DNA of 64,000 nt. It comes from a plasmid. Positions 9,308 to 33,766 of the stretch are shown piece after piece. The translations under genes and the position numbers were made by a program. Position 1 is the stretch's first letter, and each line of letters opens with the position of its first letter. The stretch lies in the sequence record NZ_LR134454.1; one strand, written 5' to 3'. Below the pieces are notes generated by a model that had not been told where the DNA came from, searched no databases, and saw only the letters and a program-made list of their open reading frames with translations.

Positions 9308-9446
9308 GCCGCGATCATAACGGCGCTCACGATTTCGCAATCTTGTGCGGTGGACACGTCGTGGAGCACGTCCGACTGCGCAGAACCCCACATCGTGAAC
9401 CAACCACGCTATTGAGTGAGCATCAACAAGCGGGTAATCTGGCGGC

Positions 9447-14071: not shown

Positions 14072-14225
14072 GGCGAAACGCTACGTCCGCCTCGGGACCG
14101 TCGCAGCGCGGCGACCGGTGAGACTACTCACAGGTCGCCGGCGATGTGGCGTTTGAAACACAACCGGGACGGGATCGCGGACCGTCGGCGACGGTACCGG
14201 GACGTGAGCGGCCCATCGTGAGGAC

Positions 14226-14786: not shown

Positions 14787-14798
14787 GTGGGGGACCGG

Positions 14799-17700
14799 TC
14801 AGTCGGACTCGAGGAGCAGGGTCTGGGCGTGTACGGGTGCGGAATGGGGACGGATGATGCGCACGCGGCCGACCGGCTGATGGGTGAGGTGGACGCCGGG
14901 CGCCAGGCTGCCTTCCTGGCGGTCGCCGGAGAACAGCACCATCGTGGCGTTGTGCTCGCGGATCCCGCCGACGACGCTGTCATAGAGCGCGCGGCTGATG
15001 CCCGCCGACCGGCGGGCGACCACCAGGTGCAGTCCGATGTCGGCCGCGTAGGGGAGATACGGGATCAGCGGGGCCAAAGGATTGTTCGAGGTGCCGGACG
15101 CGAGCAGGTCGTAGTCGTCCACGATGAGGTAGATGTGCGGTCCGGTGAACGGCGCCGCCTGTTGTTGCAGGTCCTCCGGCGGGAGGCGCCGCTGCAGTTC
15201 TTCTGCGATCCCCGCCGCAAGGGCCCCGGCCGCGGACGGCGAGCCCGCGTATCCGCCCAGGTAGTCGTCCGGGACGAAGCCCTGCAGTGTTCGCCGGGGA
15301 TCGAAGAGGCCGATGACGAGTTGCTCGTCGGTGTGGGTCGAGACGAGTTCCTCGACGATCACGCGGAGGAGGTTCGTTTTCCCCGAACGGGATTCGCCGA
15401 TGACGAGCAGGTGCTGGTCGGTCGTCGTCGGATCGAGGACGAGCGGGGCGAGGTCGGTCTCGTTGATGCCGACGAGGAGCGGCTCGCGCTCGGGAAATCC
15501 GGAGCGGAAGCCTCGATAGGCGAGCGCGTCGGGGAGGGTGGGAACCGGCGGCATGGCCTGCCCCGCGGCACGGTGCCGCGCCACTTCGACGACCTCGTCG
15601 AAGCCCGAGTCGGACGAGAGGTGGGGGAGGGCGATCTGGGCCTGCGCGCCGAGGGGTTCCGTCGTGATGACACGGCCGGGCTGATCGGCGCGGATCAGCG
15701 TGTTCTGTGCGCGGCCGATCGTCGAATCGAGTGGATCGTTGAGGCGATGCTCGATCTTGGTGCCGATCACTGCCTGCATCGACATCCGGAGATCGGCCCA
15801 TCGCCCACCGACGATGACGACATGGATACCGAGCGCGAGACCGCGGTTGCCGATGTCCTGGACCACGTCGACGAGGTCCTCGTGGTTCTCCTTGAGGGAG
15901 GCCCAGCCGTCGATCGCGAGGACGATGTCGGCCGTCACGATCTCGGGGAACTGCTCGCCGTTTGCGATGCGCGCCCGGAGGTCGGCGATACCCTGGATTC
16001 GGCGCGACGCGAAGAACTGCTCGCGGGAATCCAGACTGCCGTGGAGATCGGCCACGATCCGGCGTGCGAGGTCGCCGTCGTAGCGCGTCGCGACACTCCC
16101 GGTGTTGGGGAGCCGCTCGAGGTCCGCGAGCGCCGTTCCGTTCGCGTCGATGACGTGGAACCCGAGCCTCGCCGGCGGGTGGCTGATCGCGCCGGCGGCG
16201 ACGATGGTCCGCAGCGTGGTCGTCTTGCCGGTCTGCGGGGCGCCCGAGATGTAGACGTTGCCCGACGTTCCTCGGAAGTCGACGGTGAGCGGTGACTGAC
16301 GTTGCCGTTTGGGCTCGTCGGCGAGGCCGATCGCGATTGCGAGGCCGTCCACGGAGTGGGTCGAGTCCGAGCCGATCTGGTCGAGGGGCAGGGTCGCCGG
16401 GAGCGGGGGCAGCCAGATGCGGCGGGACTGGAGGGCGGGCGCATCGAGCGCGTCGAGGATGACGTCGAGCGTCGTCGTGTCGGTCGGGGCGATCGTGGGT
16501 GCTGCGGAATGGCGGCCGGGATTCTCCGCGACGGGCGAGAACTCGAACCGCGACACCTCCGGCGCGGCCTCGCTCTGCACGCGCTCGACGCTGGGCCGGT
16601 ACGGGCCGGAGACGAACGCGGCCTTGAACCTCGTGAAGACGTCGGGGTCGACCTTGAGGATCGCCGAGCCCGGCACGGCGGGCAGGGTGTGCGCATCGGA
16701 CACACCGAGCGCCGTCCGGGATTCCTGTGCGGTGAACGTCCGCAGCCCGATCCGGTACGAGAGATGTGATTCGAGACCGCGGAGCCGGCCCTCCTCGAGA
16801 CGCTGAGTGGACAGGAGGAGGTGGACGCCGATCGAGCGGCCGATCCGCCCGATCTGTACGAAGAGATCGATGAAGTCGGGCTTGGCCGAGAGGATCTCAC
16901 CGAACTCGTCGATGACGACGAACAGCGCGGGGAGGGGCGGCAGCTGCTCCGCAGTGGGATCGGCGAGCCGGATCCGCCGTAGGCGTTGGTATTCGGTGAC
17001 GTTCGGCAGGTTGCCGGCATCGGCGAGGACGCGCTGACGCCGCTGGAGCTCACCGAGAAGGGCGTCGTGCAGGCGATCGACCAGCCCGAGATCGTCGGCC
17101 AGGTTGTCGACCGAGGCGCTGGTGTGGGGAAGGCGCTCGAAGCCGGCGAACGCGGCCCCGCCCTTGTAGTCGACGAGGACGAACGACAGAAGATCCGGCG
17201 GGTGCGCGATGGCCATGGAGGTGAGAAGCGTTCGAAGGAGTTCGGACTTGCCGGATCCCGTGGCGCCGACGCAGAGGCCGTGCGGCCCCATCCCGTTTTG
17301 GCCGGACTCCTTGATGTCGAGGCGGACCGGCGCGCCGGCCGCATCCGCGCCGATCGGAACGTTGAGGTGATCGCCGAGCGGCCTCGGCGTGCTCCACAGT
17401 GCCGCCGGGTCGAGGTCTGCGGGATCCCCGATGTCGTGCAGGGACGGAAGATCGAAGGTGGCTTCGAGGGCACTCGACGGGATCGGGTCCGCGACGAGGC
17501 GCAGGGGCGCGAGCCGCCTGGCGCAGACGGTGGCCAGCTCGAGGGTCCAGGCGTCGACGGTCCCGCGGTCCGTCCCCAGGATGAGACGCTTCACCCATCC
17601 CGGTCCACTGTCGAGGTCGATCCCGTTGATCGATGCCGCGGAGATCCTGCCGTCGTCACCGTCGTAGGCGGATCGCGAGCTCCGCACGGCGGTAGCGCCG

Positions 17701-18962
17701 TCGGTGGTGTCCGGCTCACCGTCAGCGTCGGAGTCGTCGCCGCCGAGAAGCCTGGTCAGGACGCCCGTCAGGTCGGTCACATCCACCTCGCCCGTCGGGG
17801 AGACGCGTACGCGGGTATCGACGTGTCCCGGCTCATCGACGCGGCGCAGTGTCTCGGTCACGAAGCAGATCCCGAGTTGTTCGGGAGAGACTCCCGGAGG
17901 TAGCAGGTCGGCCGGATCGGTGCCCGCCCCTAGGCCACTGCCGATGCGGGCCGCTTCGGTCATGATGACCACGAGGGTCGGGCCGTCCCATGCGGACTCC
18001 GAACGCGACCGGTGGCCCCGGTCGCTGAGAGCGGTGATGCGCGCGGAGATGAGTTCGACGAGCCGCGTCCGCATCTCGTCCGGATCCGTGGTGATGCGGC
18101 GGGCGGGGAAGGGGCCGTCGAAGCGCCCCGGGTCGGCCGTGTGCGGGAGCCACTTCATCCAGTCGAATCGGCCTGCTCCGGTGACGGGGTCGGGCGGTGT
18201 GCCGATGTCATCGGGCGTGGTGCACAGCATGATCTGAAGATCGGCGGGAGCGTGAAGAGCGGCGGCGCCGAGCACGAGGGCCGTGATCGTCCGTCCGGTC
18301 TCATGCCCCTCGCCCAGCACCGAGACCGTGCCGCGGAGCCGGACGGCGACCGGTACTCCGATGACCGACTCCGCGCGTTGCAGGAGCCTGTCGGCATGCG
18401 CCGCGGCGACCGGATCGGGTGGCGCGGCGGAGCCGGAGGCGCCGGGAAGGGTGACGGAACGCGCTATCGGGCCGATGCCCTCACCGATGCGGACCACGAG
18501 GAAGTCGATGTCGCCGCGGCGTCGTTCGAACAGTCGGAGGCGGTTGACCGCGATCTGCGGTAGGGCTTCGGGCGCCGGGTGGCGCCACGCCATCGCGGCA
18601 CGGTAGTCGAGGATGTCCTGGTCGATACCCACACGGAGTCGTCCGATGTAGTCGACGTACCCGAGGCGGGCCTCACGTGCTTCCCGACGGCTACCCGTGC
18701 GGGCGAAGATCACGCTGGCGATCGCGGCGAGCACCATGGAGGCGATGATGGCGACGCCGGCGAGCATCCGGATCGGGTTGTTGCCGGAGAACAGCATCGC
18801 CCCGGCGCCGATCGCCGCGCCGAGCGGGAGCACCGCGCGGACGACGGTCGATATTCCGCCCGCGCCACGGGCGGTGGCGGGGACGGCGGGGATGTCGAGG
18901 GGAGCGACGTTCAGCTCGGGGCCACGCCCGCGGGCGGGCCGGCGGAAGATTGTGACCGACAT
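14799..18962 (-). CDS. eccC: Type VII secretion FtsK/SpoIIIE-family ATPase EccC (single fused polypeptide, 1387 aa)
   Basis: Two N-terminal TM helices followed by three P-loop ATPase domains (e.g. GATGSGKSELLRTLLTSMAIAHPPD; GAPQTGKTTTLRTIVAAG; GESRSGKTNLLRVIVEELV). Size and architecture match EccC. Confidence 0.9.
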   Translation of the reverse strand: MSVTIFRRPARGRGPELNVAPLDIPAVPATARGAGGISTVVRAVLPLGAAIGAGAMLFSGNNPIRMLAGVAIIASMVLAAIASVIFARTGSRREAREARLGYVDYIGRLRVGIDQDILDYRAAMAWRHPAPEALPQIAVNRLRLFERRRGDIDFLVVRIGEGIGPIARSVTLPGASGSAAPPDPVAAAHADRLLQRAESVIGVPVAVRLRGTVSVLGEGHETGRTITALVLGAAALHAPADLQIMLCTTPDDIGTPPDPVTGAGRFDWMKWLPHTADPGRFDGPFPARRITTDPDEMRTRLVELISARITALSDRGHRSRSESAWDGPTLVVIMTEAARIGSGLGAGTDPADLLPPGVSPEQLGICFVTETLRRVDEPGHVDTRVRVSPTGEVDVTDLTGVLTRLLGGDDSDADGEPDTTDGATAVRSSRSAYDGDDGRISAASINGIDLDSGPGWVKRLILGTDRGTVDAWTLELATVCARRLAPLRLVADPIPSSALEATFDLPSLHDIGDPADLDPAALWSTPRPLGDHLNVPIGADAAGAPVRLDIKESGQNGMGPHGLCVGATGSGKSELLRTLLTSMAIAHPPDLLSFVLVDYKGGAAFAGFERLPHTSASVDNLADDLGLVDRLHDALLGELQRRQRVLADAGNLPNVTEYQRLRRIRLADPTAEQLPPLPALFVVIDEFGEILSAKPDFIDLFVQIGRIGRSIGVHLLLSTQRLEEGRLRGLESHLSYRIGLRTFTAQESRTALGVSDAHTLPAVPGSAILKVDPDVFTRFKAAFVSGPYRPSVERVQSEAAPEVSRFEFSPVAENPGRHSAAPTIAPTDTTTLDVILDALDAPALQSRRIWLPPLPATLPLDQIGSDSTHSVDGLAIAIGLADEPKRQRQSPLTVDFRGTSGNVYISGAPQTGKTTTLRTIVAAGAISHPPARLGFHVIDANGTALADLERLPNTGSVATRYDGDLARRIVADLHGSLDSREQFFASRRIQGIADLRARIANGEQFPEIVTADIVLAIDGWASLKENHEDLVDVVQDIGNRGLALGIHVVIVGGRWADLRMSMQAVIGTKIEHRLNDPLDSTIGRAQNTLIRADQPGRVITTEPLGAQAQIALPHLSSDSGFDEVVEVARHRAAGQAMPPVPTLPDALAYRGFRSGFPEREPLLVGINETDLAPLVLDPTTTDQHLLVIGESRSGKTNLLRVIVEELVSTHTDEQLVIGLFDPRRTLQGFVPDDYLGGYAGSPSAAGALAAGIAEELQRRLPPEDLQQQAAPFTGPHIYLIVDDYDLLASGTSNNPLAPLIPYLPYAADIGLHLVVARRSAGISRALYDSVVGGIREHNATMVLFSGDRQEGSLAPGVHLTHQPVGRVRIIRPHSAPVHAQTLLLESD

Positions 18963-18990
18963 GGATCTTCGTTTCTGACGTAGTGGCGCT

Positions 18991-19710: not shown

Positions 19711-20018
19711 CACGGAGTGGCCTCTCGGGGTCGTGCACGCGATACCGTTGTGGAATGCAGGTCGACGATCAGGTAGCGGGTTCGCGTCAGCGGGCGCAGC
19801 GGGTGCACTGGGAACGGTCGGAACGACAGCGGATTCTGCAGGCGCATTCGCTCCGTACGAAACTGACCACTGCCGCGGTCCTGAACGGCAAACTTCCCCC
19901 GCGGTCGACGGCTTCGGTCGTGATGCTCGTGCTGTGGTCCGTCGCGATCGCGGCGATCGCCGCGGCGGCGGTGCTGGCGGGAGTGTGGATCGCCGGCTGG
20001 ATGGGTGCGAAGTCACAA

Positions 20019-21377
20019 TCAGCGCCCCAGGTCGGTACCAAGTATGTACTGGTAAATGCCCTGAGCCCAGAACAGCATGGGAATCAGCCCCAGTAGGACG
20101 AGCGCATCGACGATGTTCCAGAGCTGAGCCAGCCGTGCGCCGGTGACGGTGGGGAGCTCGAAATAGCCGAGGAACAGGATGATCACGCCGAGGAGCAGGG
20201 CGATGACCATGGTCGCGGCCGCGGTGATGAACGGTGCCGACTCCCCGATGCGCTGGTCGATCAGGGCGACCGGCACGATGAACGCACTCGTCACTGCGAC
20301 GCCGATGATCGGCGCGACGTGCCGGACCTCCGAGAAGCTTCGACTCCGCAGGAGGAAGGCCAGTCCGATGTAGGCGCCGAACGCCGCCTGCTCCCAGACG
20401 CCCGTGATCGCGAGCACGAGAACCGCTCCCACGGCGCTCGCGCAGCACGCCCACACGATCCCGTCGAGGAGGTCGGTGGCGATGACCGCCCGCCGCACGA
20501 TCTCGGGGCGACCGGGGCGCTCACGTCCGGCCTCGTACGAGGCGGCGGGAGACTCCTCCTCGGTGCGGGCCACGACGCCGCCCAGTCCCGACCAGGCCAC
20601 CGAGAGCCGTCCGGCGCAGGCGAGGCCGATGACGAGCACCGGAGAGATCCATGCCGCGAGCGCGGTGGCGTTGACTCCCAATCGGATCGCGATCACAGCG
20701 GCGATCGCGGTTCCGCCGGCGATCGACGACGAGGCGACGATCGCCCACCGGGCCGGTGACAGGACGAAGGTCGTGATGGCGATTCCGCACAGTCCGCCGC
20801 CGACGGTGGCGAGGACGACCTGTGGCCACGGGGACGCGTGGAACACCGCCGCCGAGGCGGCGGCGAAGCAGATCGGAGTGATCCAGACGAGGTGACGGGC
20901 CGGCTCCGGAGCTGCGTAGGTGGCGAGGATGAACGCGCCCATCGCGGCGGCGCATGCGCCGGCGACGAGGCCCCCGGTGACGGCGAAGGCGACGGCCGCG
21001 ACGACGACCAGCATTCCCGCGTAGCCGACGACGACGGAATGCCGGGCGTTGCCGGTCCACATCCGGCGGTCGTCCTCGACGTAGTCGGCGACCACGTCGA
21101 TCGCGGAGAAGATCTCCGGTGCGGCGACCTCGCTCGCGGCGGGCACGATGTAGAGCAGGTCCCCGTCCACGACGCCGTAGTCGCTGAGCTTTCCGTGCGC
21201 GGCGAGGGGACCGGCCGCCACCGACGCGAATTGCCATCCCGTCTCGTCGGACGGATCGAGACCGAGAACGGCGGCGACCTGGTCGACGACCTCGGCGACG
21301 GGGCGTCCGAGCGGCGCGGTGACGTCGGCGGCGTTGTCCTCCGGGCCGACAACGGTGACCCGGACGAATTCAGCCAC
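20019..21377 (-). CDS. eccD: Type VII secretion integral membrane protein EccD
   Basis: N-terminal ubiquitin-like/YukD-like soluble domain (VRVTVVGPEDNAADVTAPLGRPVAEVVDQVAAVLGL) followed by ~11 predicted TM helices. 452 aa. Confidence 0.8.
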   Translation of the reverse strand: MAEFVRVTVVGPEDNAADVTAPLGRPVAEVVDQVAAVLGLDPSDETGWQFASVAAGPLAAHGKLSDYGVVDGDLLYIVPAASEVAAPEIFSAIDVVADYVEDDRRMWTGNARHSVVVGYAGMLVVVAAVAFAVTGGLVAGACAAAMGAFILATYAAPEPARHLVWITPICFAAASAAVFHASPWPQVVLATVGGGLCGIAITTFVLSPARWAIVASSSIAGGTAIAAVIAIRLGVNATALAAWISPVLVIGLACAGRLSVAWSGLGGVVARTEEESPAASYEAGRERPGRPEIVRRAVIATDLLDGIVWACCASAVGAVLVLAITGVWEQAAFGAYIGLAFLLRSRSFSEVRHVAPIIGVAVTSAFIVPVALIDQRIGESAPFITAAATMVIALLLGVIILFLGYFELPTVTGARLAQLWNIVDALVLLGLIPMLFWAQGIYQYILGTDLGR

Positions 21378-21431
21378 GGAACGTCCCCGACCGGGCGGAG
21401 GTGCGGTGTGCGCCGTTCGACGCGTGTCCGG

Positions 21432-21728
21432 TCACGCCTGCACGCGGTTGAACAGGGCCTTGCCGGCGATGTCGGACGCCGATGCCCGCGCGGCGATACC
21501 GTCGGCGGCGCGGCCGAACTCGGCGATATTCGCGATCAGCTGCTGGGTGAAGACCCCGCCGACCTCGGCATGACCGGCCATGGCTGCGTTGACCGCCGCA
21601 CCTGCTTCCGCTCCTGCGCCGGCGACGGCGGGGCGTGCCGGGGCCGACAGCGACGCGGATACCACCCGCAGGCTGCTGCTCGCGTCGAGCAGGTCGTCGA
21701 GCGGGAACTGGGAGAACGAGGAGGTCAT
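21432..21728 (-). CDS. Small Ala-rich protein (98 aa) in the ESX operon; possible secretion-associated/PE-like helical protein
   Basis: ORF placed between the DUF4185 gene and eccD on the same strand. No WXG motif and no confident family assignment. Confidence 0.35.
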   Translation of the reverse strand: MTSSFSQFPLDDLLDASSSLRVVSASLSAPARPAVAGAGAEAGAAVNAAMAGHAEVGGVFTQQLIANIAEFGRAADGIAARASASDIAGKALFNRVQA

Positions 21729-21776
21729 CGGCTTCGGCCCTTCCGGTCGAGATGGCGTGATGCGGAGCAGGAACGG

Positions 21777-23603: not shown

Positions 23604-23772
23604 ATGGATCGCGGCGACCTTATCGCGCGGATCCGGCCCTCGCTACTTGATGTGACGAAGGGTACGTTGGTTGCGGTAACTGTTGCGAACGGTCGTAACC
23701 GCTTGTAGTGTCCTGCGCAAATTCAACCTGGGGTGTCTTGCCCCGGAAGATTCCCGGAGGGGCACGACGGCC

Positions 23773-24105
23773 ATGGGTACTCGTTTCTCAGTCGCCAATC
23801 ATGCGGTGACCACGCACGCGACCAACATCGAGCAGGTGTCTGGGGCGTTGAACGCTCAGGGCAAGCGGTTCGTCTCCGCGGTGGAGGCGTTGCCGGCGTC
23901 GTGGAAGGGGCAGTCGTTCATCGCGTGGGATCAGTTGACGACGCGGTGGGATGCTTCGTTCAAGGAGCTCAATGCGGCGTTGACGACGATCCGTGAGTCG
24001 GTGGGGCAGGCCGGGCAGCTGTACACCTCCGGTGAGCAGCAGCAGGCGGCGAACCTCGAGCAGGCGGCTCGGGGCATGGCCTGGGATCAGGCGAAGTTCC
24101 GCTGA
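23773..24105 (+). CDS. esxB: WXG100-family protein (EsxB/CFP-10-like)
   Basis: ~110 aa helical protein with a W-x-G (ASWKGQS). C-terminal EQQQAANLE resembling the CFP-10 EEQQQALSS tail, and a YxxxE (LYTSGE). Preceded by a GGAGGGG RBS. Confidence 0.65.
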   Translation: MGTRFSVANHAVTTHATNIEQVSGALNAQGKRFVSAVEALPASWKGQSFIAWDQLTTRWDASFKELNAALTTIRESVGQAGQLYTSGEQQQAANLEQAARGMAWDQAKFR

Positions 24106-24191
24106 CCCTTTCGGGCTTTCGAGCCCGACTTTTGATCTGCAGCCACGGACTTCCGTGAGCTGCGTCTGAGCCTTCCGATGAGGAGATGATC

Positions 24192-24488
24192 ATGTCTGAG
24201 ATGTATGCGTACGACGAGGGTGGCGCGGAGACCGCCGGTGATGATCTGGCGTCGATCGTCGCGGCGTTGGAAGCGAACCTGGAGCAGTTGCAGGGGTACG
24301 TGGCGTCGGTGGAGTCGCAGTGGAACGCGGATGAGCAGGTGCTCTACCGCGGCGTGCAGACCAAGTGGAACAACGCCGCGGCGTCGGTGAGCGAGATCCT
24401 CGGGCAGATGAAGACCGCGCTCGGCACGAACACCGAGCAGGTTCGTGACATGCGGTCGCAGGTGCGCTCCGCGCTGTCGCGCAACTGA
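24192..24488 (+). CDS. esxA: WXG100-family protein (EsxA-like)
   Basis: 98 aa. YRGVQTKWNNAAASVSEILGQM parallels the EsxA [22 protein letters not shown] block. RBS GAGGAG 6 nt upstream of the ATG. The W-x-G itself is degenerate (WNA). Confidence 0.6.
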   Translation: MSEMYAYDEGGAETAGDDLASIVAALEANLEQLQGYVASVESQWNADEQVLYRGVQTKWNNAAASVSEILGQMKTALGTNTEQVRDMRSQVRSALSRN

Positions 24489-24578
24489 CTGTCCTCACGA
24501 GCTCGTCATAGTCCTGAAGGCCGCGCCATGTGTGTGCGGCCGCGTCCTGTCGTTGTCTATCGAAGGATCACTGAGCTG

Positions 24579-25166
24579 ATGTCCTCCATTTTCACCCTTG
24601 CCAAGCGGCTATCGGTAGCGGCGCTGACCAGTATCGCGATCGCTGGTGCTGTCGTCGCGCCCGCGGAAGCCGTGCCGACCACGGCCGGCTGCCGTGCCGT
24701 ACCTCAACCGGCACTGACGCTGGGCGCGGAAGGCATAGTCCGAGTGGAGATTCCTGCCGCAGCTGGGTGGCACGAGGTCGCCGCCCCTCGCGGTGCGTCG
24801 CGCCTCGCGCTGGGGCGCCTCGAGGACGCGTCCGGGCAGGACGCCCTCGACGCGTGGATCGGTGTCCTCAACAGCAACACGATCACCACGTCCGCCCAAT
24901 TTGCTGATGCGGAGACTGCTCACAGGCAGGTGCTCTCCCGGCGATCAGTCGCCGGGCCCTGCGGCCTGCCCACCGAGGCGGTGACCGTGCGTCACGCAGC
25001 CACTGCGACAGAGCGTGAGTACTTCGTCAGCGGCCGCTACACGCTCGCGCAAGCGAACGGGAAGACTTTGGTCATCTACGTCGGCGCGAGCACCTACGAC
25101 CGGAACAGACTGCCGCAGCTGGAAAACGACCTTCTGCGCGGCTACGGCATCCGCCTCCCCGCGTAA
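24579..25166 (+). CDS. Small secreted protein (~195 aa), unknown function
   Basis: Start re-called at MSSIFTLAKRLSVAALTSIAIAGAVVAPAEA (Sec signal peptide). Sits between the WXG100 pair and the toxin gene. Confidence 0.5.
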   Translation: MSSIFTLAKRLSVAALTSIAIAGAVVAPAEAVPTTAGCRAVPQPALTLGAEGIVRVEIPAAAGWHEVAAPRGASRLALGRLEDASGQDALDAWIGVLNSNTITTSAQFADAETAHRQVLSRRSVAGPCGLPTEAVTVRHAATATEREYFVSGRYTLAQANGKTLVIYVGASTYDRNRLPQLENDLLRGYGIRLPA

Positions 25167-25212
25167 CGCCGACCTGCTCACTACACGTTCTCTCTAGAGA
25201 GGCCCCCTCGCG

Positions 25213-28200
25213 ATGAGTCTCGATATCAATCCCGGCGACGGCATCGTCGGGGAGCTGGAGCTACTCGGTGATCTGATCGTCGGTGGGTTCCCGGAGGCCG
25301 TGTTCACGCTGCCGGGGGTGAGCGTCGACGAGGTACTCGATCACGCCCGTCTGTATCTCGGGTTCGCGGAGGCGGCGGAGTCGGCGCATGCTCGGGTTCG
25401 TGGACTCGAGGTGCCCGAGTTCGTGGGTGTGGAGGGCGAGTTCTTCCGCGGCCGAGTCCCCGGCGAGTTGGCGATGCAGCTCGGCGCGGCGGTGGAGTCG
25501 TACTCCCGAGTCGGTTCGGGGATCAAGGAACTCGCCCGCGAACTCGACGCCTCGCAAGCCGCTTTGAAGCCTCTCGAAGCGCGGGCGCGGGCGGTGTTCG
25601 AGCACATGCAGAAGGTGTGGATCAAGGTCAACGTCCCGTTCACTGAGTACAGCGGGTTGCGCAGCGAGTGGGATGAGCTCGTCCGCGCTGCGGGTGTGGT
25701 GCACGAGCGGGTCGCGGTGGCCGGGCAGGAGGCGGCAGCGGCGATCACCGCGGGCACCGAGGCGATGGTGCCGGTCAACGACTACTTCTCCACGCTGCCT
25801 GGCGGAGCGGTGGCGGGTGGTGTTGTGGCGCAGGGTGTGCGGTCGACTGCGTCGCGTGCGGCCTCCGCTGCCGGTGGCGTGGCCGGGGCGCCGGGACGCG
25901 CCGCGAAGGCGACCGCCGACGGGCTGGGTGCCGTAGCTGGCGCGGTCACCTCGGTTCCGCAGCAGATCACCGCGCGCGGGCAGCAACTCGCGCCGCAGGT
26001 GACCCCGGACGGGATCAAGGTCGGCGACCAGCTCCTCACCGATCCGACGAGCGAGCAGGCACAGAAGCTCGTGCGGGACGGGCAGGCTACGAACATCCTC
26101 GGACTCGACCCCACTGGTGTTCCGACGGCGATGATGATGCTCGCCTCCCCGAACACCCTGCTGCGCGAGCAGCCGCGCAAGAAGGCGGCCGGGCGTAGAT
26201 GGTCGGGTGAGGAGTCGAAGGCGCAGTCGATCGCGCAGAATGCGGTCGGTCAGGTGGTCTCGGTTCCGGGACGGTTCGTCGGCGGCGCCGTCGACCGGTT
26301 CGGCAACACCATCGCCGGCAATGCCGCTCTGATCGGTGTCGGTGGTGACCCCGTCCGCGCGTGGACGGGGCTGCTCTCGAATGTCACCAGCCCCGTTGCG
26401 GGTGCTGGTCGCGCTGTAGCGTCTGCGACGCCCGAGCAGATCCTGGCCGACCCGATCGCCGCAGCCGGCTCGGCAGCCACCCACGCGCCCGCCGCGGTGC
26501 CCTTCGTCGGCTGGGTCTACGGGCTGGTGGAGTGGGCGACCAAGCCCGGCGAACTCGCCCACGAAGGCGCGAAGGAATCACTCACCTCCGCCCTCGATGC
26601 ACTCACATTGAAGAACCTCGAAGCAGGCCAGGCAGTCGCCAACACCGGCGAAGTGCAAGTCACCACCTCCGACGTGGACGTCCACGCCGACAACGGCGGA
26701 TACGTCACCTTCACCCTCCCAGACCTCGAAGGCGGAGAACCCAAAGCCTGGTACATCCTCGCCACCCCCGACAGCCCCGGAAACTTCACCACCAACGTCC
26801 CCACCGCCCCGGGTGAGGAGCTCGTCGAACGCGGCGACGGCTCCGTCGTGTTGGTCAACAGCGGAACCGGACAGATCGTCCGCACCATCAAAACGCCGTG
26901 GGCGAAAGACGCACTCGGACGCGATCAACCCACCTGGTACTCCATCGACAAGGTCGACGACCAGACGTCGACGATCACCCAACACATCGCACCGAACAAG
27001 GGAGCGCTGTATCCGCTGGTGGCGGATGCTCCTGGTGATCAGAAGACGACGACGAATCCTGACGGATCGGTCGCAACGTCAACTGAGATTGAGGGTGGCT
27101 CTGTCGATACGACGGTGAAGAACGCTGACGGGACTACTTCGTCGATGCGGAGCGTCCCCGACGGCAACGGTGGGGTGACTACATTCACGGCGAACCCTGA
27201 CGGTAGTCATTCGGTGCATTACCCCGACGGGTCGCGAGTGGAGGAGCCTGCGGCGGGGGCGAGTACACCCGCTCAGAGTTATGCTCCTGATCCGAAGTAT
27301 TCGAATCCGCAGTATCGTCAGGAGCCCGCGCAGCAGGCTCCTGCTCAGCAGGCCCCGGCGCAGCAGCCTGCGGCTCCTTCCGCACCTGCTGTTGCTCCTG
27401 CCGAGTCGTCGGTCGGTGCGGTAGACACGGCAGGACGTGACGACGGTGATTCATGGACCCAAGGCTTGCCGGGTGGCGAGTCCGCGCAGCACACCATCGT
27501 CCCCGGCACGGGCGGTCAGACTGTTGACTCTGTGGTCACCCGCCCTGATGGTTCGTCGACGAAGATCCGTTCGGTCAAAGACGGGCAAGGCGGATGGAAG
27601 ATCTGGTCCGACAACAGTGACGGCACCGCATCGTATGCAGAACGCCAGGGCTCGCTCGGCGACGTTTACACCGCCCGGTACGGCGAGTCCCCGGTGTACG
27701 GCAGCGCACCTATCGTCACCTCCAACGCGGCTCCCGACAACTCCAAAGGGCAGATCGTCGGGCAAAATCCGAACGGAACCACGTCGGTGGGCAACTTCGG
27801 GGTCCGCGACGACGGACGCGTCGGGCTGTCGGTGCGAAACCCCGACAACACTGTCTCCTCCATCGTCACTGGAACAGGTCCCGATGGCCGTCCCCACGAT
27901 GACATCACCACGTTCAACGACGGCAAGACTGAGACCAGTCACGAGGTAAACCCGTTCACAGGTGAGCGGACCGAGACCACCACCGTGCTCGACACGGGCG
28001 TGAAGGTTATCGCCGTTCTGGATCGCGATAACAACCTCATCTCCCGAGTCCAAGGCGTTGGTGGTCAGCTTGAAGGCGTGATGAACACCCCCGACGGGCA
28101 GGTGGAGATTCAGGTCCGCCCCGACGGGGTGTACGGGCGGAGCGCGAACGGGGAGTTCGTCAAGTTCCGTGAAGACGGGGAACTGCCCGATACCCGCTCC

Positions 28201-29988
28201 TTCGGGCAGAAGGCGAACGACCAGGCAGGAAAGTTCGGGTCCGCCGTCGGGGGAAGCGTGTGGGATTCCCTCAAGAGCGTCCCGCAGACCGTTGCCCACC
28301 CGGGCGAGGCAGCTTCCGGGCTCTGGGAGACAGCGAAGGGACTGGTCGGACAGGAAAAGGCCGACCGCACCGTCATCCACAACTGGACCACCTTCCTGAC
28401 GGGGACCAACGCCAATGAGTGGACCGAGGACGGGGTCGCCACCTCCCTCGGACACGCGGTTGTCGGTGTCGGCTCATGGTTCATCCCTGGCCCCGGCTGG
28501 GTCGCCAAGGTCACTCGCGCAGGGCACCTCGGCTCCACAGCAGCCCACGCCCTCGAGCACGTCGACAACGCCCGCTCCACCGCGAGCACCGCAACCCGCG
28601 CCGCCGCCATGGGAGCAGTCAGCCGCGCCCTACCAAACCTCACAGAACGCTTCCAAGGCTTCAACGCAGCCCGCGCCGCCGACATCGGCGTCGACGCTCC
28701 TGAAGCGGCACCCGCCGCAGGAAAACCCACGCCACGCGCCGAAGCTCCCGCACCCTCCGTTGCCGTCCCACGAGCGGAAGCCCCCGCCAGTCCAACGCCC
28801 GCACCTCGCGTCGAGGCACCCGCAACTACCGCCCCCCGAGCCGAGACACCTAACAACACCCCAGGGACACCGCCCCGCGCTGCGGACACACAGAACCCGT
28901 CCGTCGACACACCCCGCATCGACACCCCCGACGCACCCACCACCCCGAAGCCGGACAATCCCGCTTTCACGACCACCCCGGGAGCAGACCGCCGCGCCGC
29001 AGAGGCTGCGGCCCCCGCCGAACGCCCCGACCACCACCCGGCCTCGCCAACCGAGAAGGCCGGCGCTGACGCAGACAAGACAGTGGACACGCCGAAGGTC
29101 GGCGAAGTCGACGCCCCGAGGGCTGGCGATGTGGACACCCCCACCACCTCAGGTGCGGCGCGCGCGGATGCACCGTCCGTTGGCGACGGTGTGCCAGGCA
29201 AGGCAGCAGACCTCGACGGCGGACCGCACCCGCGCGGAGAACTCGACATCGACCTCGACAATTACTTCCACCCAGGCGAAAGTGGCGGCACCAAGTACAC
29301 CGCCGACGACGTACGCACTGCCTTCGACAACGCACCCAACAACAAGGAGGGTGTCCCTGTCGATCACCGCACCGGCGAACCACTGGTCCTCACCGACGCC
29401 GCAGGCAAACGCGGGTGGACCATGCGCCAGGACGCCGACGGAGTATGGCGCGCCGAAAACTACGCGCTGCACCCGGACGGGATGCCTAAGAAGGGCACAC
29501 CCAACAGTTACGGCTACGACGCCAACGGTGACCTCCGCAAATACGCCGAGAACAGACCGAGTCATAAACCCGAAGACATCAAAACCGTGTGGGACACTAC
29601 CCACACGGATATCAACAACCTCATCGAGTCCGGCGTCCTCCGCGACCTGCCCAAAACCGAACGACCCGACCAAACCTGGCTCCGAGCACCCGACGGAACC
29701 AAAACAAACGGCAGCGACATACGCGAAACCCTCAACACCCGCACAGGCGAGACCGAGGTATACAAGCTCGAAACCTGGAAACCCGGCGACAAACAAAACT
29801 GGGACATGGGACACATCAAGGGTGAGGAATACCGCCGAATCCACGATGACTACATGCGCGGAAAGTACAAGTCCGACGAAGACTTCGTTGAAGACTTCCG
29901 TAATTTGGACCTTTATGAGGCGGCGAATGCACCTCGCAACCGCTCCCACGTGGATGAAGACATGACTCCGCTGCCGCCGCGCCCCTGA
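25213..29988 (+). CDS. Polymorphic toxin (1591 aa): N-terminal helical domain, central degenerate repeat region, Pro/Ala-rich linker, C-terminal HNH/GH-E-like nuclease toxin domain
   Basis: Giant ORF with an AGAGAGG RBS. Central repeats of the form NPDGS..T..DG (YD/RHS-like, degenerate). Pro-rich tandem PRAEAPA-like linker at ~aa 1150-1260. C-terminus WDMGHIKGEEYRRIHDDYMRGKYKSDEDFVEDFRNLDLYEAANAPRNRSH matches the G-H-E / N-L / N-x-S-H pattern of GH-E HNH nucleases. GC drops from ~70% to ~55% across the 3' end. Confidence 0.65.
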   Translation: MSLDINPGDGIVGELELLGDLIVGGFPEAVFTLPGVSVDEVLDHARLYLGFAEAAESAHARVRGLEVPEFVGVEGEFFRGRVPGELAMQLGAAVESYSRVGSGIKELARELDASQAALKPLEARARAVFEHMQKVWIKVNVPFTEYSGLRSEWDELVRAAGVVHERVAVAGQEAAAAITAGTEAMVPVNDYFSTLPGGAVAGGVVAQGVRSTASRAASAAGGVAGAPGRAAKATADGLGAVAGAVTSVPQQITARGQQLAPQVTPDGIKVGDQLLTDPTSEQAQKLVRDGQATNILGLDPTGVPTAMMMLASPNTLLREQPRKKAAGRRWSGEESKAQSIAQNAVGQVVSVPGRFVGGAVDRFGNTIAGNAALIGVGGDPVRAWTGLLSNVTSPVAGAGRAVASATPEQILADPIAAAGSAATHAPAAVPFVGWVYGLVEWATKPGELAHEGAKESLTSALDALTLKNLEAGQAVANTGEVQVTTSDVDVHADNGGYVTFTLPDLEGGEPKAWYILATPDSPGNFTTNVPTAPGEELVERGDGSVVLVNSGTGQIVRTIKTPWAKDALGRDQPTWYSIDKVDDQTSTITQHIAPNKGALYPLVADAPGDQKTTTNPDGSVATSTEIEGGSVDTTVKNADGTTSSMRSVPDGNGGVTTFTANPDGSHSVHYPDGSRVEEPAAGASTPAQSYAPDPKYSNPQYRQEPAQQAPAQQAPAQQPAAPSAPAVAPAESSVGAVDTAGRDDGDSWTQGLPGGESAQHTIVPGTGGQTVDSVVTRPDGSSTKIRSVKDGQGGWKIWSDNSDGTASYAERQGSLGDVYTARYGESPVYGSAPIVTSNAAPDNSKGQIVGQNPNGTTSVGNFGVRDDGRVGLSVRNPDNTVSSIVTGTGPDGRPHDDITTFNDGKTETSHEVNPFTGERTETTTVLDTGVKVIAVLDRDNNLISRVQGVGGQLEGVMNTPDGQVEIQVRPDGVYGRSANGEFVKFREDGELPDTRSFGQKANDQAGKFGSAVGGSVWDSLKSVPQTVAHPGEAASGLWETAKGLVGQEKADRTVIHNWTTFLTGTNANEWTEDGVATSLGHAVVGVGSWFIPGPGWVAKVTRAGHLGSTAAHALEHVDNARSTASTATRAAAMGAVSRALPNLTERFQGFNAARAADIGVDAPEAAPAAGKPTPRAEAPAPSVAVPRAEAPASPTPAPRVEAPATTAPRAETPNNTPGTPPRAADTQNPSVDTPRIDTPDAPTTPKPDNPAFTTTPGADRRAAEAAAPAERPDHHPASPTEKAGADADKTVDTPKVGEVDAPRAGDVDTPTTSGAARADAPSVGDGVPGKAADLDGGPHPRGELDIDLDNYFHPGESGGTKYTADDVRTAFDNAPNNKEGVPVDHRTGEPLVLTDAAGKRGWTMRQDADGVWRAENYALHPDGMPKKGTPNSYGYDANGDLRKYAENRPSHKPEDIKTVWDTTHTDINNLIESGVLRDLPKTERPDQTWLRAPDGTKTNGSDIRETLNTRTGETEVYKLETWKPGDKQNWDMGHIKGEEYRRIHDDYMRGKYKSDEDFVEDFRNLDLYEAANAPRNRSHVDEDMTPLPPRP

Positions 29989-30010
29989 ACCGCCTGTTAG
30001 GATCACCCAC

Positions 30011-30553
30011 ATGGACGACCACTGGTACTCCTCCGCCTACCCCGCCGCCAGTATGGGCACTTACGACAACTTCATCGCAGTCTACGAGGGCAGTGAAGAC
30101 GAAGCGTCAATCCAGAATCACACGGAACCCAAAGATAACACCCTACTCTGGAAAGCTGCGCACAATAGGAATGTTGACGCACGGCTAGCTATCTGCAATA
30201 GGCTCATCGATGACGGTATCGATGTGGCATATGAGGACAACAAGACGAACGTCTTACACTTGTACTTCAGTAACCGCACCTTCGAGCCCGAGAAGGAGGC
30301 GCCTCTTCTGCGTAGGTTACTGGAAGGTGGGGCGGATCTGAACCTCCAGCCCAGTAAAGGCTACTCCCCCCTAATGACCTTCATGACTAACCCGCGCCTG
30401 TTACCCGATGAAGTGAAGGTTCCGTTTTTTAATGTGCTTTTGGAGTTTCCTGAGTTTGTGTATCGGGAGCCTGACGGTTCGTTGCGGTGGCCGATGATCC
30501 CGTCGCTGACAGCGTGTATTGAGGCGCATGAGGCGAAGGCGGGTGGGCGGTGA
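30011..30553 (+). CDS. Ankyrin-repeat protein; candidate immunity protein for the upstream toxin
   Basis: 180 aa, ~50% GC. Ankyrin-like repeats (LLWKAAHNRNVDARLAICNRLIDDGIDV...; LLRRLLEGGADLNLQPSKGYSPLM). Sits 22 bp after the toxin stop. Confidence 0.55.
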   Translation: MDDHWYSSAYPAASMGTYDNFIAVYEGSEDEASIQNHTEPKDNTLLWKAAHNRNVDARLAICNRLIDDGIDVAYEDNKTNVLHLYFSNRTFEPEKEAPLLRRLLEGGADLNLQPSKGYSPLMTFMTNPRLLPDEVKVPFFNVLLEFPEFVYREPDGSLRWPMIPSLTACIEAHEAKAGGR

Positions 30554-31371
30554 CGGTGGTGCCGGGTCATCTGACGCGGGTGTACGGGGCTTCGGTTGCT
30601 CGGTTTGAGCCGCTGTTCGAAGGCGCGGTGGAGGTCGAGGTCCGCGCTCACGACGGCATGCAAAGGCGGCGGACAGTAACCACCGACGGGTTGTCGGTGA
30701 TCGTCGACGGTGTACCTGTGGAGTTAGCAGTTGAGGTCTCCGCTAAGGATCAGGTCGGCACGGCTGCGGTAGCGATCAGCACCGTCGCCCGAGACATTGT
30801 TGATAATCGGCGGCGTCCACCCCTCGAAGTGGTGTCACGGCTCCCCCGCCCGCTGGTGGAGGGAACACGACTGCGGGCGATCATCGCGTCGGGATCGCGG
30901 TTCGGAGCGGACGCTGATGTGATTGTTGAGAGCGCGGGTGATCGGGTCGTCCAGGTGGTGACGTTGCGGTTGCTGACATGGGCAGAAGCGAACGTGGTCG
31001 ATGATCGTGGCTGGAACGCCTTCCTCACCACGGTCGGCAGTCCCGATGAGGTGCTCGACACACAGCGCGTCACCGACGCTGCACGCCCCACTGTCGCTGA
31101 ATTGGGAAACCTGCCGATACTGGTCTCGAAGCAGCACTACGACCACCCGCCCCGGTTCGTCGGGTTGATGGATGTCGACGGCAGACTCACCTTCACCTCT
31201 ACCACCGGACGTGAAAGCCCGGAATACATGGCAGACCCATCCAACCGCGAAATATGGGGCATCAACAGCTACCTCCAAGACTTCCCGTGGGTCGAATCCT
31301 TCATCACCACCGCCGCCCCCGGCGACGATGCCGTATTCACCGATCAGTCAGGTGACTTCGCTTGGGAGTAG
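30550..31371 (+). CDS. Hypothetical protein (273 aa), translationally coupled to the ankyrin gene
   Basis: GTGA start/stop overlap with the ankyrin ORF. No recognisable domain. Intermediate GC. Confidence 0.4.
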   Translation: MTVVPGHLTRVYGASVARFEPLFEGAVEVEVRAHDGMQRRRTVTTDGLSVIVDGVPVELAVEVSAKDQVGTAAVAISTVARDIVDNRRRPPLEVVSRLPRPLVEGTRLRAIIASGSRFGADADVIVESAGDRVVQVVTLRLLTWAEANVVDDRGWNAFLTTVGSPDEVLDTQRVTDAARPTVAELGNLPILVSKQHYDHPPRFVGLMDVDGRLTFTSTTGRESPEYMADPSNREIWGINSYLQDFPWVESFITTAAPGDDAVFTDQSGDFAWE

Positions 31372-31669
31372 AAACCCTCCCGCCGTTCAGTCGTCACCAG
31401 TAGTTGCTTCATGAGCGGCGCACCGCCACCGCGTACCCTCACCATCGGTACGGATGCATGCTGGCGACGTACAGGTCGGTGACCACATTTCTACCGCGAC
31501 GACGACGGCGACTTACCGTTCGCGGCGCAGGCTGGAGATGTGCCCTTTCAGTCAGACGCAGCAACTCCGACAAACCTGGGACGCTCCGGAGTGCCGTCGA
31601 ATGAATCTCCCCCGGGAGTGGTGGAAGGTCTGAAATCTGAATTGCCCCGGAAGCAGGAGTAGCCACCCC

Positions 31670-32407
31670 ATGAGAAAGTCCCGCCCAATCCACGAACCTC
31701 CCGAGCCGGTTCCCGTGGACCCACGGCCAAGTCGCCTCGAAACCGACCTCGCCACCCTCGAGATCGGCCACGGCTTCACCCTCGGCAACCCCGCCTACCC
31801 CCCGCACGGCAATTCCGAAGGCGACCGAGTCGTCTACCTCACCCGCCCTAGTACCGTCCCCGGATGCGACGACGTCATCGAATACACCATCCATGGCCGA
31901 GGACGTTCCGGAGTCATCGACGGCGCAGCGTACATCGCCCACCCTGCCATGCGCGAAATCGCCCAGCGCGACCCCCAACAATACGGATTCACCCCCGGAA
32001 CCTGGCTCAGCAACTCATTTCACCGAAATATGCTGCACATCGAATGGGCAGGCGCACCAGCATCTGTAAAGTTCCGTGCCAACGCCACCGAGGAGAGCGT
32101 CCACTGGGGTTACAGTGTTGCGCTCGACTACGCTACTTCTTACTACCCCCGACGCTCGGACGAAGAATTCTTCCCTCTTTATCGCACTTTCGAATCGATC
32201 GAGCGTGGGGCGTATGCCATCCTAGAGCGAGGAAAGAGGATTGCCAAACCGCGGTTTTCTCGCGAGCAGGCATTTGTTATCTACGCGATGTTTGTTGGTG
32301 AGCATGAGAGCGCACACCGCATGTACACCACACTGCAGCGATTCGAAGCACCCGAAGCAACCAGCTTCTCGAACGCCATCGAAGTGATCTTTGGGCGATT
32401 GCCGTAA
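31670..32407 (+). CDS. Hypothetical protein (245 aa) in the low-GC island
   Basis: ORF with GGAGTAG upstream. 3' half falls to <50% GC. No family recognised; may be an orphan toxin/immunity module. Confidence 0.35.
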   Translation: MRKSRPIHEPPEPVPVDPRPSRLETDLATLEIGHGFTLGNPAYPPHGNSEGDRVVYLTRPSTVPGCDDVIEYTIHGRGRSGVIDGAAYIAHPAMREIAQRDPQQYGFTPGTWLSNSFHRNMLHIEWAGAPASVKFRANATEESVHWGYSVALDYATSYYPRRSDEEFFPLYRTFESIERGAYAILERGKRIAKPRFSREQAFVIYAMFVGEHESAHRMYTTLQRFEAPEATSFSNAIEVIFGRLP

Positions 32408-32528
32408 GCAGTTCGGCTTCAAGGGCTCGACGCAAGAGATGTGTTGCTAGCTCTTCGGGATGGATGCTGACTGCGGCTCAAAAGATAAAACGATACAACG
32501 ACAAACTCAATGGGGAGTGGAAACAATA

Positions 32529-33011
32529 ATGAGAACGGTGCTTCGATATTCGCTGCGGATCGCGATTGCCGCGTGTGTGGTCGCACCCGTGGCAGGGTGC
32601 GGTCTCGAGCATGCTGGAAATGCACCTACGACGTACGTTCGTCCCGGGCACACGCTGCCGGCATCGACCACGTCAGTGAGTTCGCCGACTGCCGTAAGCT
32701 CGTCCGTTCCGGAACCGACGACCGTCCCTACGATCGCAGATACCTGCTCCGGGAGCTACTGGTACGGCGACGCGGTCAACACGCACGTATGGATCGGACG
32801 GCGCGTCGCGCAGGACGCCAGGATTGTCGTGACGACCACCGACGGGAAGGTCAGTTCATGGACGAACACCGTCACGTCCGACGACGGGTACGCCCGTAAG
32901 GGCTGGTACAGCGAGTCCACGACGCCGTTGCTCGGCACTCCGGTGGCGACGGTCAAACGTGTCGACCTCCAGATCGACGGTCGAACCTGCCCGATCCGAA
33001 AGACGGGATAG
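32529..33011 (+). CDS. Small lipoprotein (160 aa)
   Basis: MRTVLRYSLRIAIAACVVAPVAGCG: signal peptide with lipobox. AT-rich upstream region and GGGGAG RBS. Confidence 0.5.
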   Translation: MRTVLRYSLRIAIAACVVAPVAGCGLEHAGNAPTTYVRPGHTLPASTTSVSSPTAVSSSVPEPTTVPTIADTCSGSYWYGDAVNTHVWIGRRVAQDARIVVTTTDGKVSSWTNTVTSDDGYARKGWYSESTTPLLGTPVATVKRVDLQIDGRTCPIRKTG

Positions 33012-33060
33012 TCAGACCGGCCGGTGAGTCGCCGACCTATCGCGAAGCGGCAGCGGTGGA

Positions 33061-33766
33061 CTAGGAGCTGACGCCGAGGCGGTTGAGGAGGTCGGCGTCG
33101 ATGCCGTCGAGCTCGCGGGCGATGGCCTGGTGCGCCGGGCGGCGGCGCGCGGGCGGCATCGACTCGGACGCGGTGATGGCGGTGCCCAGGTCGTCGAGGC
33201 GCTGCGCCACGGCGGCGGTGAAGGACTTGGTCTCCGCATCGGGGTGCGTGGCCGCCAGCTGGTCCAGCGAGCGACGGGCCGCCGCGACGCGGGCCGAGAG
33301 GCCGCCGCCGTAGCCGGCGAACGCCGCGACCTCGTCGACGGGCACGCCGAGGCGCGAGGCCTTGGCCGCATCGAGCTGGTTCCGGCCGGCCTGCGCCGCC
33401 CGGTAGGCGATCGGCACCACGACAGGCGCCAGCAGGCGCGCGGTCGAGATGTAGCGCTTGAGCCGCGCCTCGGAGAGGAGCTTGCCGTCGACGGCCGCGC
33501 GGGCCTGGGTCTCGGCGATCTTCAGGTTCGCCGCATCGGCCTTGCCCTGCGCCTTCGCCACGATCTTCGAGCGCTGCAGGTCGGCCTTCAGCGCCTTGCG
33601 CTCGCTCTTCGACGCGTTCTTCACGACGCGCTTGGCGTCACGGTCCGCGTTCTTGGCGGCGAGCTTCGCCTCGAGGCGCCCCTTGGACTTGAGCGCCTTG
33701 GCCTGCGCGCGGCGCTCCGCGCGGGAGGACTTCGTCTTCTTGCCGAACAAACCCATCAGTGCACGT
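33061..33766 (-). CDS. Lys/Ala/Arg-rich conserved hypothetical protein (235 aa)
   Basis: Real start MGLFGKKTKSSRAERRAQAKALKSKG... The upstream ~820 codons of the 1058-aa track ORF are antisense to the RecB-like gene and rejected. Confidence 0.5.

Follow-up and report, generated by a model that had tools for sequence, protein, structure and literature searches.

The stretch 29200-33011 of the window (the whole 64-kb stretch of DNA analysed here, sequence record NZ_LR134454.1) carries the 3' end of a toxin gene and the small genes behind it, and very probably belongs to a type VII polymorphic nuclease toxin locus of Tsukamurella tyrosinosolvens, to whose entries the proteins of the window are 100% identical. 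The toxin has a total length of 1591 amino acids (aa), closes with a GH-E nuclease tip and is followed in the same cassette by an ankyrin-repeat protein of 180 aa (ank180), the candidate immunity protein, and by a second immunity-type protein of 273 aa which is SUFU-like (orf273). Behind them stands one orphan immunity candidate, orf245 (Table 1). A conserved toxin body with alternative tips, an adjacent immunity-type gene that co-varies with the tip and a downstream orphan cassette were all found, which suggests that the locus is a polymorphic toxin system.

The nuclease tip and the boundaries of its cassette

The C-terminal module of the toxin matches the Pfam family GH-E (PF14410) with E 1.7e-10 and 41.8 bits against a cut-off of 25, the core of the match lying at aa 1526-1579 (nucleotides (nt) 29788-29949). 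The residues G1533-H1534 (WDMGH), E1538/E1539, N1576 (RNRSH) and DED1581-1583 are conserved across seven aligned GH-E tips and correspond to the published conserved GH, E, N and E residues (PMC3482391 Table 2). The name given to the toxin by NCBI is already 'GH-E family nuclease'; a search of the PDB found no sequence relatives of the tip. Judged by its family membership, the tip would degrade nucleic acid in the target cell. The original prediction, made from the letters of the DNA and its open reading frames (ORFs), had placed a toxin C-terminus in a low-GC stretch at this site, and this C-terminus turned out to be the variable 3' end of a polymorphic toxin.

The body of the toxin is conserved (94.7% aa identity to the toxin of Tsukamurella hominis over aa 1-606) and is closed by a linker rich in Ala, Pro, Thr and Asp (aa ~1131-1379). 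Just after this linker, at toxin aa ~1380, lies the left homology breakpoint in three other lineages (29347, 29349 and 29363), and the left edge of the cassette coincides with the fall in GC. The right breakpoint lies exactly at the stop of orf273, 31371, in Tsukamurella pulmonis and in a metagenomic Tsukamurella, the two closer lineages. Due to these shared breakpoints 29349-31371 is regarded as one cassette, and the unit of GH-E tip, 180-aa ank and 273-aa SUFU-like protein recurs in four Tsukamurella lineages. T. hominis runs collinear with the window as far as 27029 and once more from 33058 on, at 92-97% nt identity; what lies in between has diverged (GH-E 56.5% aa identity, ank 51%, SUFU-like protein 37%) and has neither orf245 nor the lipoprotein gene of the right flank. 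The metagenomic Tsukamurella has lost 23706-29349, which comprises the WXG100 pair and the toxin body, and has kept a 211-aa GH-E ORF, ank and the 273-aa gene. In T. pulmonis about 330 bp of the 3' end of EccC are joined directly to the GH-E tip, ank and the 273-aa gene, in a different neighbourhood.

Alternative tips are found on related toxin bodies. A paralogue of 1858 aa in Tsukamurella paurometabola is 75% identical to the toxin over aa 1-347, then 52%, then 30%, and its unrelated C-terminus is followed by orf244. Another allele (locus L011) has a different toxin tip followed by Imm49, and the 90% cluster of the toxin includes a T. ocularis allele named 'DNA/RNA non-specific endonuclease'. 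Pfam returned nothing on the tips of the 1858-aa toxin and of the Imm49-allele toxin; their residue patterns (GELL...RPD...ESK and D...ENK, respectively) give them the look of PD-(D/E)xK nucleases, a purely tentative assignment.

An ankyrin-repeat protein directly behind the tip

An exhaustive phmmer search found 1899 relatives of ank180, many of them long proteins with several matched stretches each, as expected of repeats, and many others of ~170-220 aa which match end to end with 36-52% identity. The alignment of 36 sequences of the family contains the motifs NRLLDDGAD and EAPLLRRLLxGGADxN. The AlphaFold2 (AF2) model computed from this alignment reached a predicted local distance difference test (pLDDT) of 92 and a predicted template modelling score (pTM) of 0.88, and has three pairs of a short and a long helix. 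Foldseek with this model gave 3T8K as the top match, with a template modelling (TM) score of 0.68, followed by DARPins and natural ankyrin (ANK) proteins at TM 0.5-0.6, with a probability of 1.00. The 36-sequence profile matched ANK chains of the PDB at E 8.6e-23 to 1e-9, and the family profile matched 3T8K over its full length (E 3.7e-18, residues 4-178 against 10-181). The AF2, Foldseek and family-profile results therefore confirm, at the level of a predicted structure, the ankyrin fold of ank180, and the earlier claim that the 180-aa ORF encodes an ankyrin-repeat protein is upheld. The entry 3T8K (Lebu_0176 of Leptotrichia buccalis, from structural genomics) is 17-18% identical to ank180 over the structural alignment and, as a candidate by family only, may be a GH-E immunity protein.

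Three distant homologues of ank180 (41-46% identity), all metagenomic, were looked up, and each stands directly after GH-E and before Imm33: the first behind a 653-aa toxin, the second behind an incomplete toxin ORF that runs 398 aa up to the end of the contig, and the third behind a 175-aa orphan piece of GH-E which itself lies downstream of a different WXG-type nuclease toxin. A genome scan with a single peptide pattern derived from 10 sequences, using one genome per species, returned 13 loci, a biased sample, and GH-E lies directly upstream in seven of them (Propionibacteriaceae, four of Zimmermannella bifida, Sanguibacter and Nocardioides). Imm33 follows downstream in all four of those GH-E/ank loci whose contigs extend far enough. 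The place right after GH-E is kept in every GH-E context found, and the identities of the two proteins run in parallel across comparisons (GH-E/ank 91/88, 83/66, 56.5/51 and ~35-40/~35-41%). It had been expected that homologues of the ankyrin protein would occur in toxin/immunity contexts; the homologue neighbourhoods bear this out, with relatives directly 3' of GH-E in unrelated actinobacterial genomes. It is fairly probable that ank180 is the sole cognate immunity protein for GH-E, and it most likely acts by binding and blocking the nuclease tip.

A contig of the third case, metagenomic and actinobacterial, shows a textbook orphan-cassette array at positions 1704-7013: a toxin of WXG type with Endonuclea_NS_2, an immunity gene (GAD-like/Tdi1), and then the 175-aa orphan piece of GH-E with ank and Imm33.

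The second immunity-type gene and competing assignments

The product of orf273 is labelled SUFU-like on sequence grounds, and membership in the SUFU family is not claimed. Its Serinibacter homologue (41%) matches SUFU with E 3.6e-4 and 20.9 bits, likewise below the cut-off of 25, and is named 'suppressor of fused domain protein' by one source; the T. hominis homologue has no Pfam SUFU match. The residues G47xS49, E58 and E62 are invariant in six homologues and fit the published Imm-SuFu motif (PMC3482391); D82 is invariant in the same six, and its spacing to R does not fit the DxxR of Imm-SuFu. The last ~100 aa resemble Imm33 (PF09951) weakly (Pfam E 0.094, 13 bits against a cut-off of 25.4), and the likeness, limited to the motif ESPEYmAD..N against DTSEYLnD.sN, is not significant by hhalign (probability 4-5%, P 0.003-0.008) or by hmmsearch with a profile of eight Imm33 sequences (E 0.013-0.48). 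The gene follows ank in all four Tsukamurella cassettes, at a distance of 47 nt in T. hominis, and the distant homologues from Serinibacter and a metagenome stand alone without a toxin. As had been proposed, orf273 may be an immunity module, being an immunity-type protein which in Tsukamurella always accompanies GH-E and ank.

Several observations weigh against the assignment of roles given above. Taken as a single sequence, ank180 stays under all five Pfam Ank cut-offs (the best, Ank_2, gives 20.9 bits against 27.3), and six of the 13 scanned loci (Streptomyces, Microbacterium) carry ank alone among unrelated genes, without GH-E. The GH-E/ank/Imm33 cassettes outside Tsukamurella are related to each other and are not fully independent. 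Since two immunity-type genes follow one toxin, the cognate one is not decidable by synteny. The match of orf273 to Pfam SUFU (PF05076) is sub-threshold (E 2.4e-3, 18.2 bits against a cut-off of 25), its AF2 model from four sequences has a pLDDT of 38.6, and a search of the PDB with its family profile gave no SUFU chain, only a chance match (EsxG, E 0.34). As to export, no Pfam family matches toxin aa 1-396 at E<=1 and no WXG-like or LXG targeting domain was recognised there, while neither EccB nor MycP was recognised in the locus, where part of the ORFs was scanned.

According to one competing explanation, orf273 is the true immunity protein of GH-E, and ank is either an accessory, which might for instance stabilise or chaperone the toxin tip ahead of export, or the immunity to some other toxin. 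Imm-SuFu is listed first among the immunities of Tox-GH-E, SuFu proteins are widely tied to HNH-fold toxins (PMC3482391), orf273 is present in four of four Tsukamurella cassettes, and a bioRxiv survey speculates that ankyrin-associated proteins serve as chaperones of Rhs toxins. Outside Tsukamurella, however, it is the ank homologue that always comes directly after GH-E, then Imm33, and a SUFU-like gene was not detected there; the orf273 homologues of Serinibacter and the metagenome are found without a toxin. The T. pulmonis cassette speaks in the same direction. It is a mosaic, in which 29830-30200 (~50 aa at the end of GH-E and ~60 aa at the start of ank) has 37-60% nt identity between flanks of 80-97%, and the variable patch spans the tail of GH-E and the head of ank, whereas orf273 there is 92% identical. 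Such a hypervariable patch fits an interface replaced as a pair, a pattern which plain adjacency would yield as well. With this evidence on both sides, the assignment of immunity to orf273 is considered unlikely.

A little less doubtful, yet still improbable, is the explanation that immunity needs two proteins jointly, ank together with Imm33 or with the SUFU-like partner, as an obligate three-gene module. It is favoured by the strict order GH-E, ank, Imm33 in seven of seven complete contexts outside Tsukamurella and GH-E, ank, SUFU-like gene in four of four within it, by the solo ank loci, which have no adjacent Imm33, by published fusions of SuFu to ankyrin repeats and to Imm33 (PMC3482391), by the weak Imm33 signal in the C-terminal 100 aa of orf273 and by the 4-bp overlap of the ank and orf273 genes. 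Against this, the cassettes share descent, and mere hitch-hiking may explain the linkage; unrelated immunity genes commonly stand together in polyimmunity arrays (PMC3482391), the link between orf273 and Imm33 falls short of significance, and in T. hominis the two genes are separated rather than overlapping. The reading of ank180 as the cognate immunity protein is preferred, and orf273 is taken as the cassette's second immunity-type protein.

The orphan gene orf245 and the right flank

Downstream of a unique spacer, in which no Rfam family, tRNA or terminator-like site was found, homology of the orf245 region to four other loci begins exactly at 31646, and for T. paurometabola it ends at 32412. 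In T. paurometabola an 82% homologue of orf245 overlaps the gene of the 1858-aa paralogous toxin by 4 bp, starting on its stop codon. In the window the last eight codons of such a toxin are left as a vestige, PEAGVATP against PEAGAATP in the T. paurometabola toxin, with the same ATGA overlap. From the overlap with a toxin stop and from this vestige, orf245 is taken as a candidate orphan immunity gene, in agreement with the original prediction, since the toxin overlapped by its homologue has a different C-terminus. The protein itself has no Pfam, NCBIfam or PDB match. As a side observation, the T. paurometabola locus (4428-10735) holds a second copy of the toxin family, 1858 aa long with an unannotated C-terminus of ~450 aa, together with the orf245 homologue and an adjacent resolvase and DNA methylase; toxin and homologue may lie on a mobile element there.

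The lipoprotein gene belongs to the flank. Its start is most likely 32529 (MRTVLRY...) and not 32460, and no Pfam or NCBIfam match was found. In T. paurometabola strains without the toxin, homology of the flank (94.4%) runs from 32467 through the lipoprotein gene into DUF6474 and an RNase H-like gene, and an 83-bp relic of orf245 lies just upstream of it. The gene is also found beside the Imm49 allele and beside an allele with a 1321-aa toxin, so that it keeps its place beside three differing toxin/immunity alleles and also where a strain has no toxin; in T. hominis it is lost, homology resuming at 33058. Because it stays put across alleles and toxin loss, it is a gene of the locus flank and not an acquired cassette, and the suggestion that it might be an acquired immunity or toxin module has to be given up. 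The NCBI records of T. tyrosinosolvens annotate just a 60-aa fragment at its place, while T. paurometabola has a full 161-aa 'Lipoprotein'; the gene is likely under-annotated in T. tyrosinosolvens.

Base composition and gene geometry

GC was measured in 400-bp segments over the whole 64 kb (mean 0.702, standard deviation (SD) 0.045). Values under 0.60 occur only in segments that start at 29401-30201 and at 31801-32401; the lowest, 0.5425, lies ~3.5 SD under the mean. The fall in GC that had first drawn attention to the stretch is real. Among the five ORFs the ankyrin gene is indeed the lowest (0.543), as had been claimed, followed by orf245 (0.592), toxin aa 1331-1591 (0.598), orf273 (0.625) and the lipoprotein gene (0.636); GC at third codon positions (GC3) is 0.67-0.75 in the low-GC ORFs against ~0.95 in core genes. 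The stretch had been described as a single low-GC island. The low GC stood, and the unity did not: there are two cassettes, 29349-31371 and 31646-32412, with a spacer between them and a conserved flank from 32467. Horizontal acquisition of the low-GC stretch is plausible from GC, GC3 and presence or absence among species, with no donor identified.

The idea that the stretch is the remnant of an unrelated mobile element (prophage, insertion sequence or integrative element), with ORFs unconnected to the toxin, was rejected as very improbable. GC and GC3 below the rest of the genome would agree with it, as would the copy of orf245 near a resolvase and a DNA methylase in T. paurometabola. However, no integrase, transposase, tRNA or flanking repeat was found within or beside 29200-33100, the boundaries show no Rfam family, terminator or meaningful direct or inverted repeat, and there was no match in a plasmid collection. 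The left boundary lies inside the toxin gene, exactly where the C-terminal domain starts, and the genes present belong to families of toxin/immunity systems.

Both features of gene spacing noted earlier, the gap of 22 bp and the overlap GTGA, were found at their sites. The toxin stop ends at 29988 and the ATG of ank lies at 30011, with AGGA 8 nt upstream of this ATG; the TGA of ank (30551-30553) lies on the GTG of orf273 (30550-30552), and the 4-bp overlap is also present in T. pulmonis and in the metagenomic Tsukamurella. This geometry suggests translational coupling of toxin, ank and orf273. Substitutions against homologues at codon positions 1/2/3 number 16/8/42 in GH-E, 17/11/46 in ank, 23/9/76 in orf273, 29/23/61 in orf245 and 3/2/11 in the lipoprotein gene, and since they fall mostly at third positions, the five ORFs are real coding frames. 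A minus-strand ORF of 180 aa at 31439-31981 was rejected as a gene, because the plus-strand orf245 has third-position-biased substitutions and conserved homologues.

Secretion genes and genomic context

Upstream of the toxin lie genes of type VII secretion, comprising EccC-like and EccD-like components and a pair of WXG100 proteins, and a gene for a DUF4185 protein also belongs to this context. The same arrangement of EccC, EccD and a WXG100 pair is present in T. hominis and in the metagenomic Tsukamurella. The toxin is presumably exported by the adjacent EccC/EccD with the two WXG100 proteins. The first WXG100 gene is listed as an ORF from 23683; the ATG at 23773 agrees with a T. hominis homologue of 110 aa. 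UniRef calls a member of the 90% cluster of the signal-peptide protein 'Lipoprotein LpqN'. Among the papers searched, none links Tsukamurella to type VII toxins.

Table 1. Features of the toxin locus and their positions in the window.
Feature	Position	Strand	Basis
EccC-like type VII secretion ATPase	14799..18962	-	Pfam FtsK_SpoIIIE E 3.2e-65, three matched stretches
EccD-like membrane component with YukD domain	20019..21377	-	Pfam EccD E 6.2e-21, YukD E 2.7e-12
WXG100 protein 1	23773..24105	+	Pfam WXG100 E 1.2e-13; TIGR03930 E 1.9e-14
WXG100 protein 2	24186..24488	+	Pfam WXG100 E 4.2e-7, 30.6 bits against cut-off 27.3
Signal-peptide protein between WXG100 pair and toxin	24528..25166	+	same place in T. 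hominis
Toxin N-terminal and central region, aa 1-1379	25213..29348	+	conserved trafficking/stalk part between alleles
Toxin C-terminal module, GH-E HNH/EndoVII nuclease, aa ~1380-1591	29349..29988	+	PF14410, homology breakpoints
ank180, 180-aa ankyrin-repeat protein, candidate cognate immunity for GH-E	30011..30553	+	fold, position directly 3' of GH-E
orf273, 273-aa SUFU-like protein (Imm-SuFu type), second immunity-type gene of cassette	30550..31371	+	sub-threshold SUFU match, synteny
Unique 274-bp spacer between cassettes	31372..31645	.	similarity to compared loci in last 24 nt only
Vestige of 3' end of another toxin allele	31646..31673	+	PEAGVATP then TGA, overlapping orf245 ATG
orf245, orphan immunity candidate for a different toxin C-terminus	31670..32407	+	homologue overlaps paralogous toxin stop
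160-aa lipoprotein, lipobox VAGC, conserved right-flank gene	32529..33011	+	flank homology

The block from VanY to DUF6474 (14226-33058) has GC3 of 0.72-0.90 against ~0.95 in core genes. It could be a minimal type VII locus, perhaps an acquired one. At 10182-10270 of the T. hominis locus, just upstream of DUF6474, the DNA resembles window positions 14180-14240 and 14760-14786, the two flanks of VanY (77% and 89%), and looks like a sequence common to both ends of the ESX block. It was also observed that T. pulmonis and T. paurometabola independently keep just ~330 bp of the EccC 3' end joined to the toxin-tip/immunity end (window 14811-15157; T. pulmonis locus 6990-7322; T. paurometabola locus 541-6828). 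Loss of secretion genes while immunity genes stay appears to be a recurrent pattern.

In one source the proteins bear the label '(plasmid)'. An origin from a plasmid was rejected, since the plasmid collection gave no match and the contigs are chromosomes of 4.9 Mb.

Proposed mode of action

According to the preferred reading, the conserved N-terminal and central part of the 1591-aa toxin would serve export by EccC/EccD with the two WXG100 proteins, and the Ala/Pro-rich linker would carry a replaceable GH-E tip of HNH fold which attacks the nucleic acid of the target cell. The producer would be shielded by genes of the same operon: ank180 would bind the nuclease tip, and the SUFU-like orf273 would act as a second immunity-type protein of the cassette. 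The GH-E tip, ank and orf273 would make up a lower-GC recombination unit, which Tsukamurella lineages exchange or lose as a whole. The gene orf245 may be a leftover of another allele of this toxin, or may have come in together with it, in which case it would protect against neighbours with that allele, and the lipoprotein gene would be a resident of the flank.

A bolder extension can be formulated, according to which the actinobacterial GH-E clade is neutralised not by a single immunity protein but by an obligate unit of a compact ~180-aa ankyrin protein, with 3T8K as an uncharacterised member, and an Imm33-type partner, which in Tsukamurella forms part of the C-terminus of the SUFU-like protein, and the toxin is delivered between mycolic-acid bacteria by a minimal EccC/EccD system. 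It is a long shot. If true, the two-protein, minimal type VII reading would give an ESX-like system in Mycobacteriales an antibacterial role.

Relation to known systems and significance

In CdiA-CT/CdiI and Rhs systems toxin tip and immunity are swapped at a fixed junction, and orphan immunities keep a 3' fragment of the displaced toxin. The eight-codon toxin fragment upstream of orf245 is like the orphan modules of these contact-dependent inhibition (CDI) and Rhs systems. The secretion system and the repeats differ, no junction peptide equivalent to VENN or PxxxxDPxGL was identified, and the vestige is just 24 nt long.

The nearest published counterpart is Tox-GH-E, listed with export through type VII secretion (T7SS; WXG, LXG, LDXD) and with Imm-SuFu and Imm-ank immunities (Zhang et al. 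2012 Biol Direct, PMC3482391), where Tox-REase-1 is paired with Imm49. An actinobacterial example is Srot_0310 of Segniliparus rotundus, a GH-E toxin whose N-terminal domains are WXG-like (Zhang, Iyer, Aravind 2011 NAR, PMC3113570). The Tsukamurella locus shares with these systems PF14410, the T7SS (WXG) route listed for Tox-GH-E, immunity-type proteins of ankyrin and SUFU-like kind, in line with the two listed superfamilies, an actinobacterial host and a long N-terminal region. It differs in that both immunity-type genes are present together, in fixed order and overlapping, and in that its ank belongs to a compact ~180-aa subfamily missed by Pfam Ank models applied to a single sequence. In contrast to Srot_0310, the N-terminus of the Tsukamurella toxin has no demonstrated WXG-like domain; the published support for Tox-GH-E is all computational. 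With the Firmicute T7SSb toxins of LXG/EsaD type (Staphylococcus aureus EsaD-EsaG; PMC9484751) the locus has in common a type VII-linked nuclease toxin, a polymorphic C-terminus, immunity directly downstream and extra non-cognate immunities; the machinery here is actinobacterial (EccC/EccD), no LXG was detected, and the immunity-type proteins are ankyrin and SUFU-like and not EsaG/DUF600.

The association of GH-E with Imm-ank and Imm-SuFu was already published in 2012 and the toxin is already named in NCBI, so the current understanding of such systems is unchanged by this locus. The new points are modest: a compact ankyrin subfamily tied to GH-E with a solved member, 3T8K; the fixed order of GH-E, ank and Imm33 or a SUFU-like gene; and the orf245 family. 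Nevertheless, experimental work on type VII polymorphic toxins has been done almost entirely in Firmicutes, and the locus is a compact actinobacterial example in a mycolic-acid opportunistic pathogen, whose natural alleles, deletions and orphans show where the units of recombination lie. Three things in it are open to testing: the toxin tip, delimited to aa 1380-1591, together with the two proteins that may protect against it; a ~180-aa ankyrin family which lacks annotation and goes with GH-E nucleases; and the family-less orf245, paired with an uncharacterised tip in T. paurometabola.

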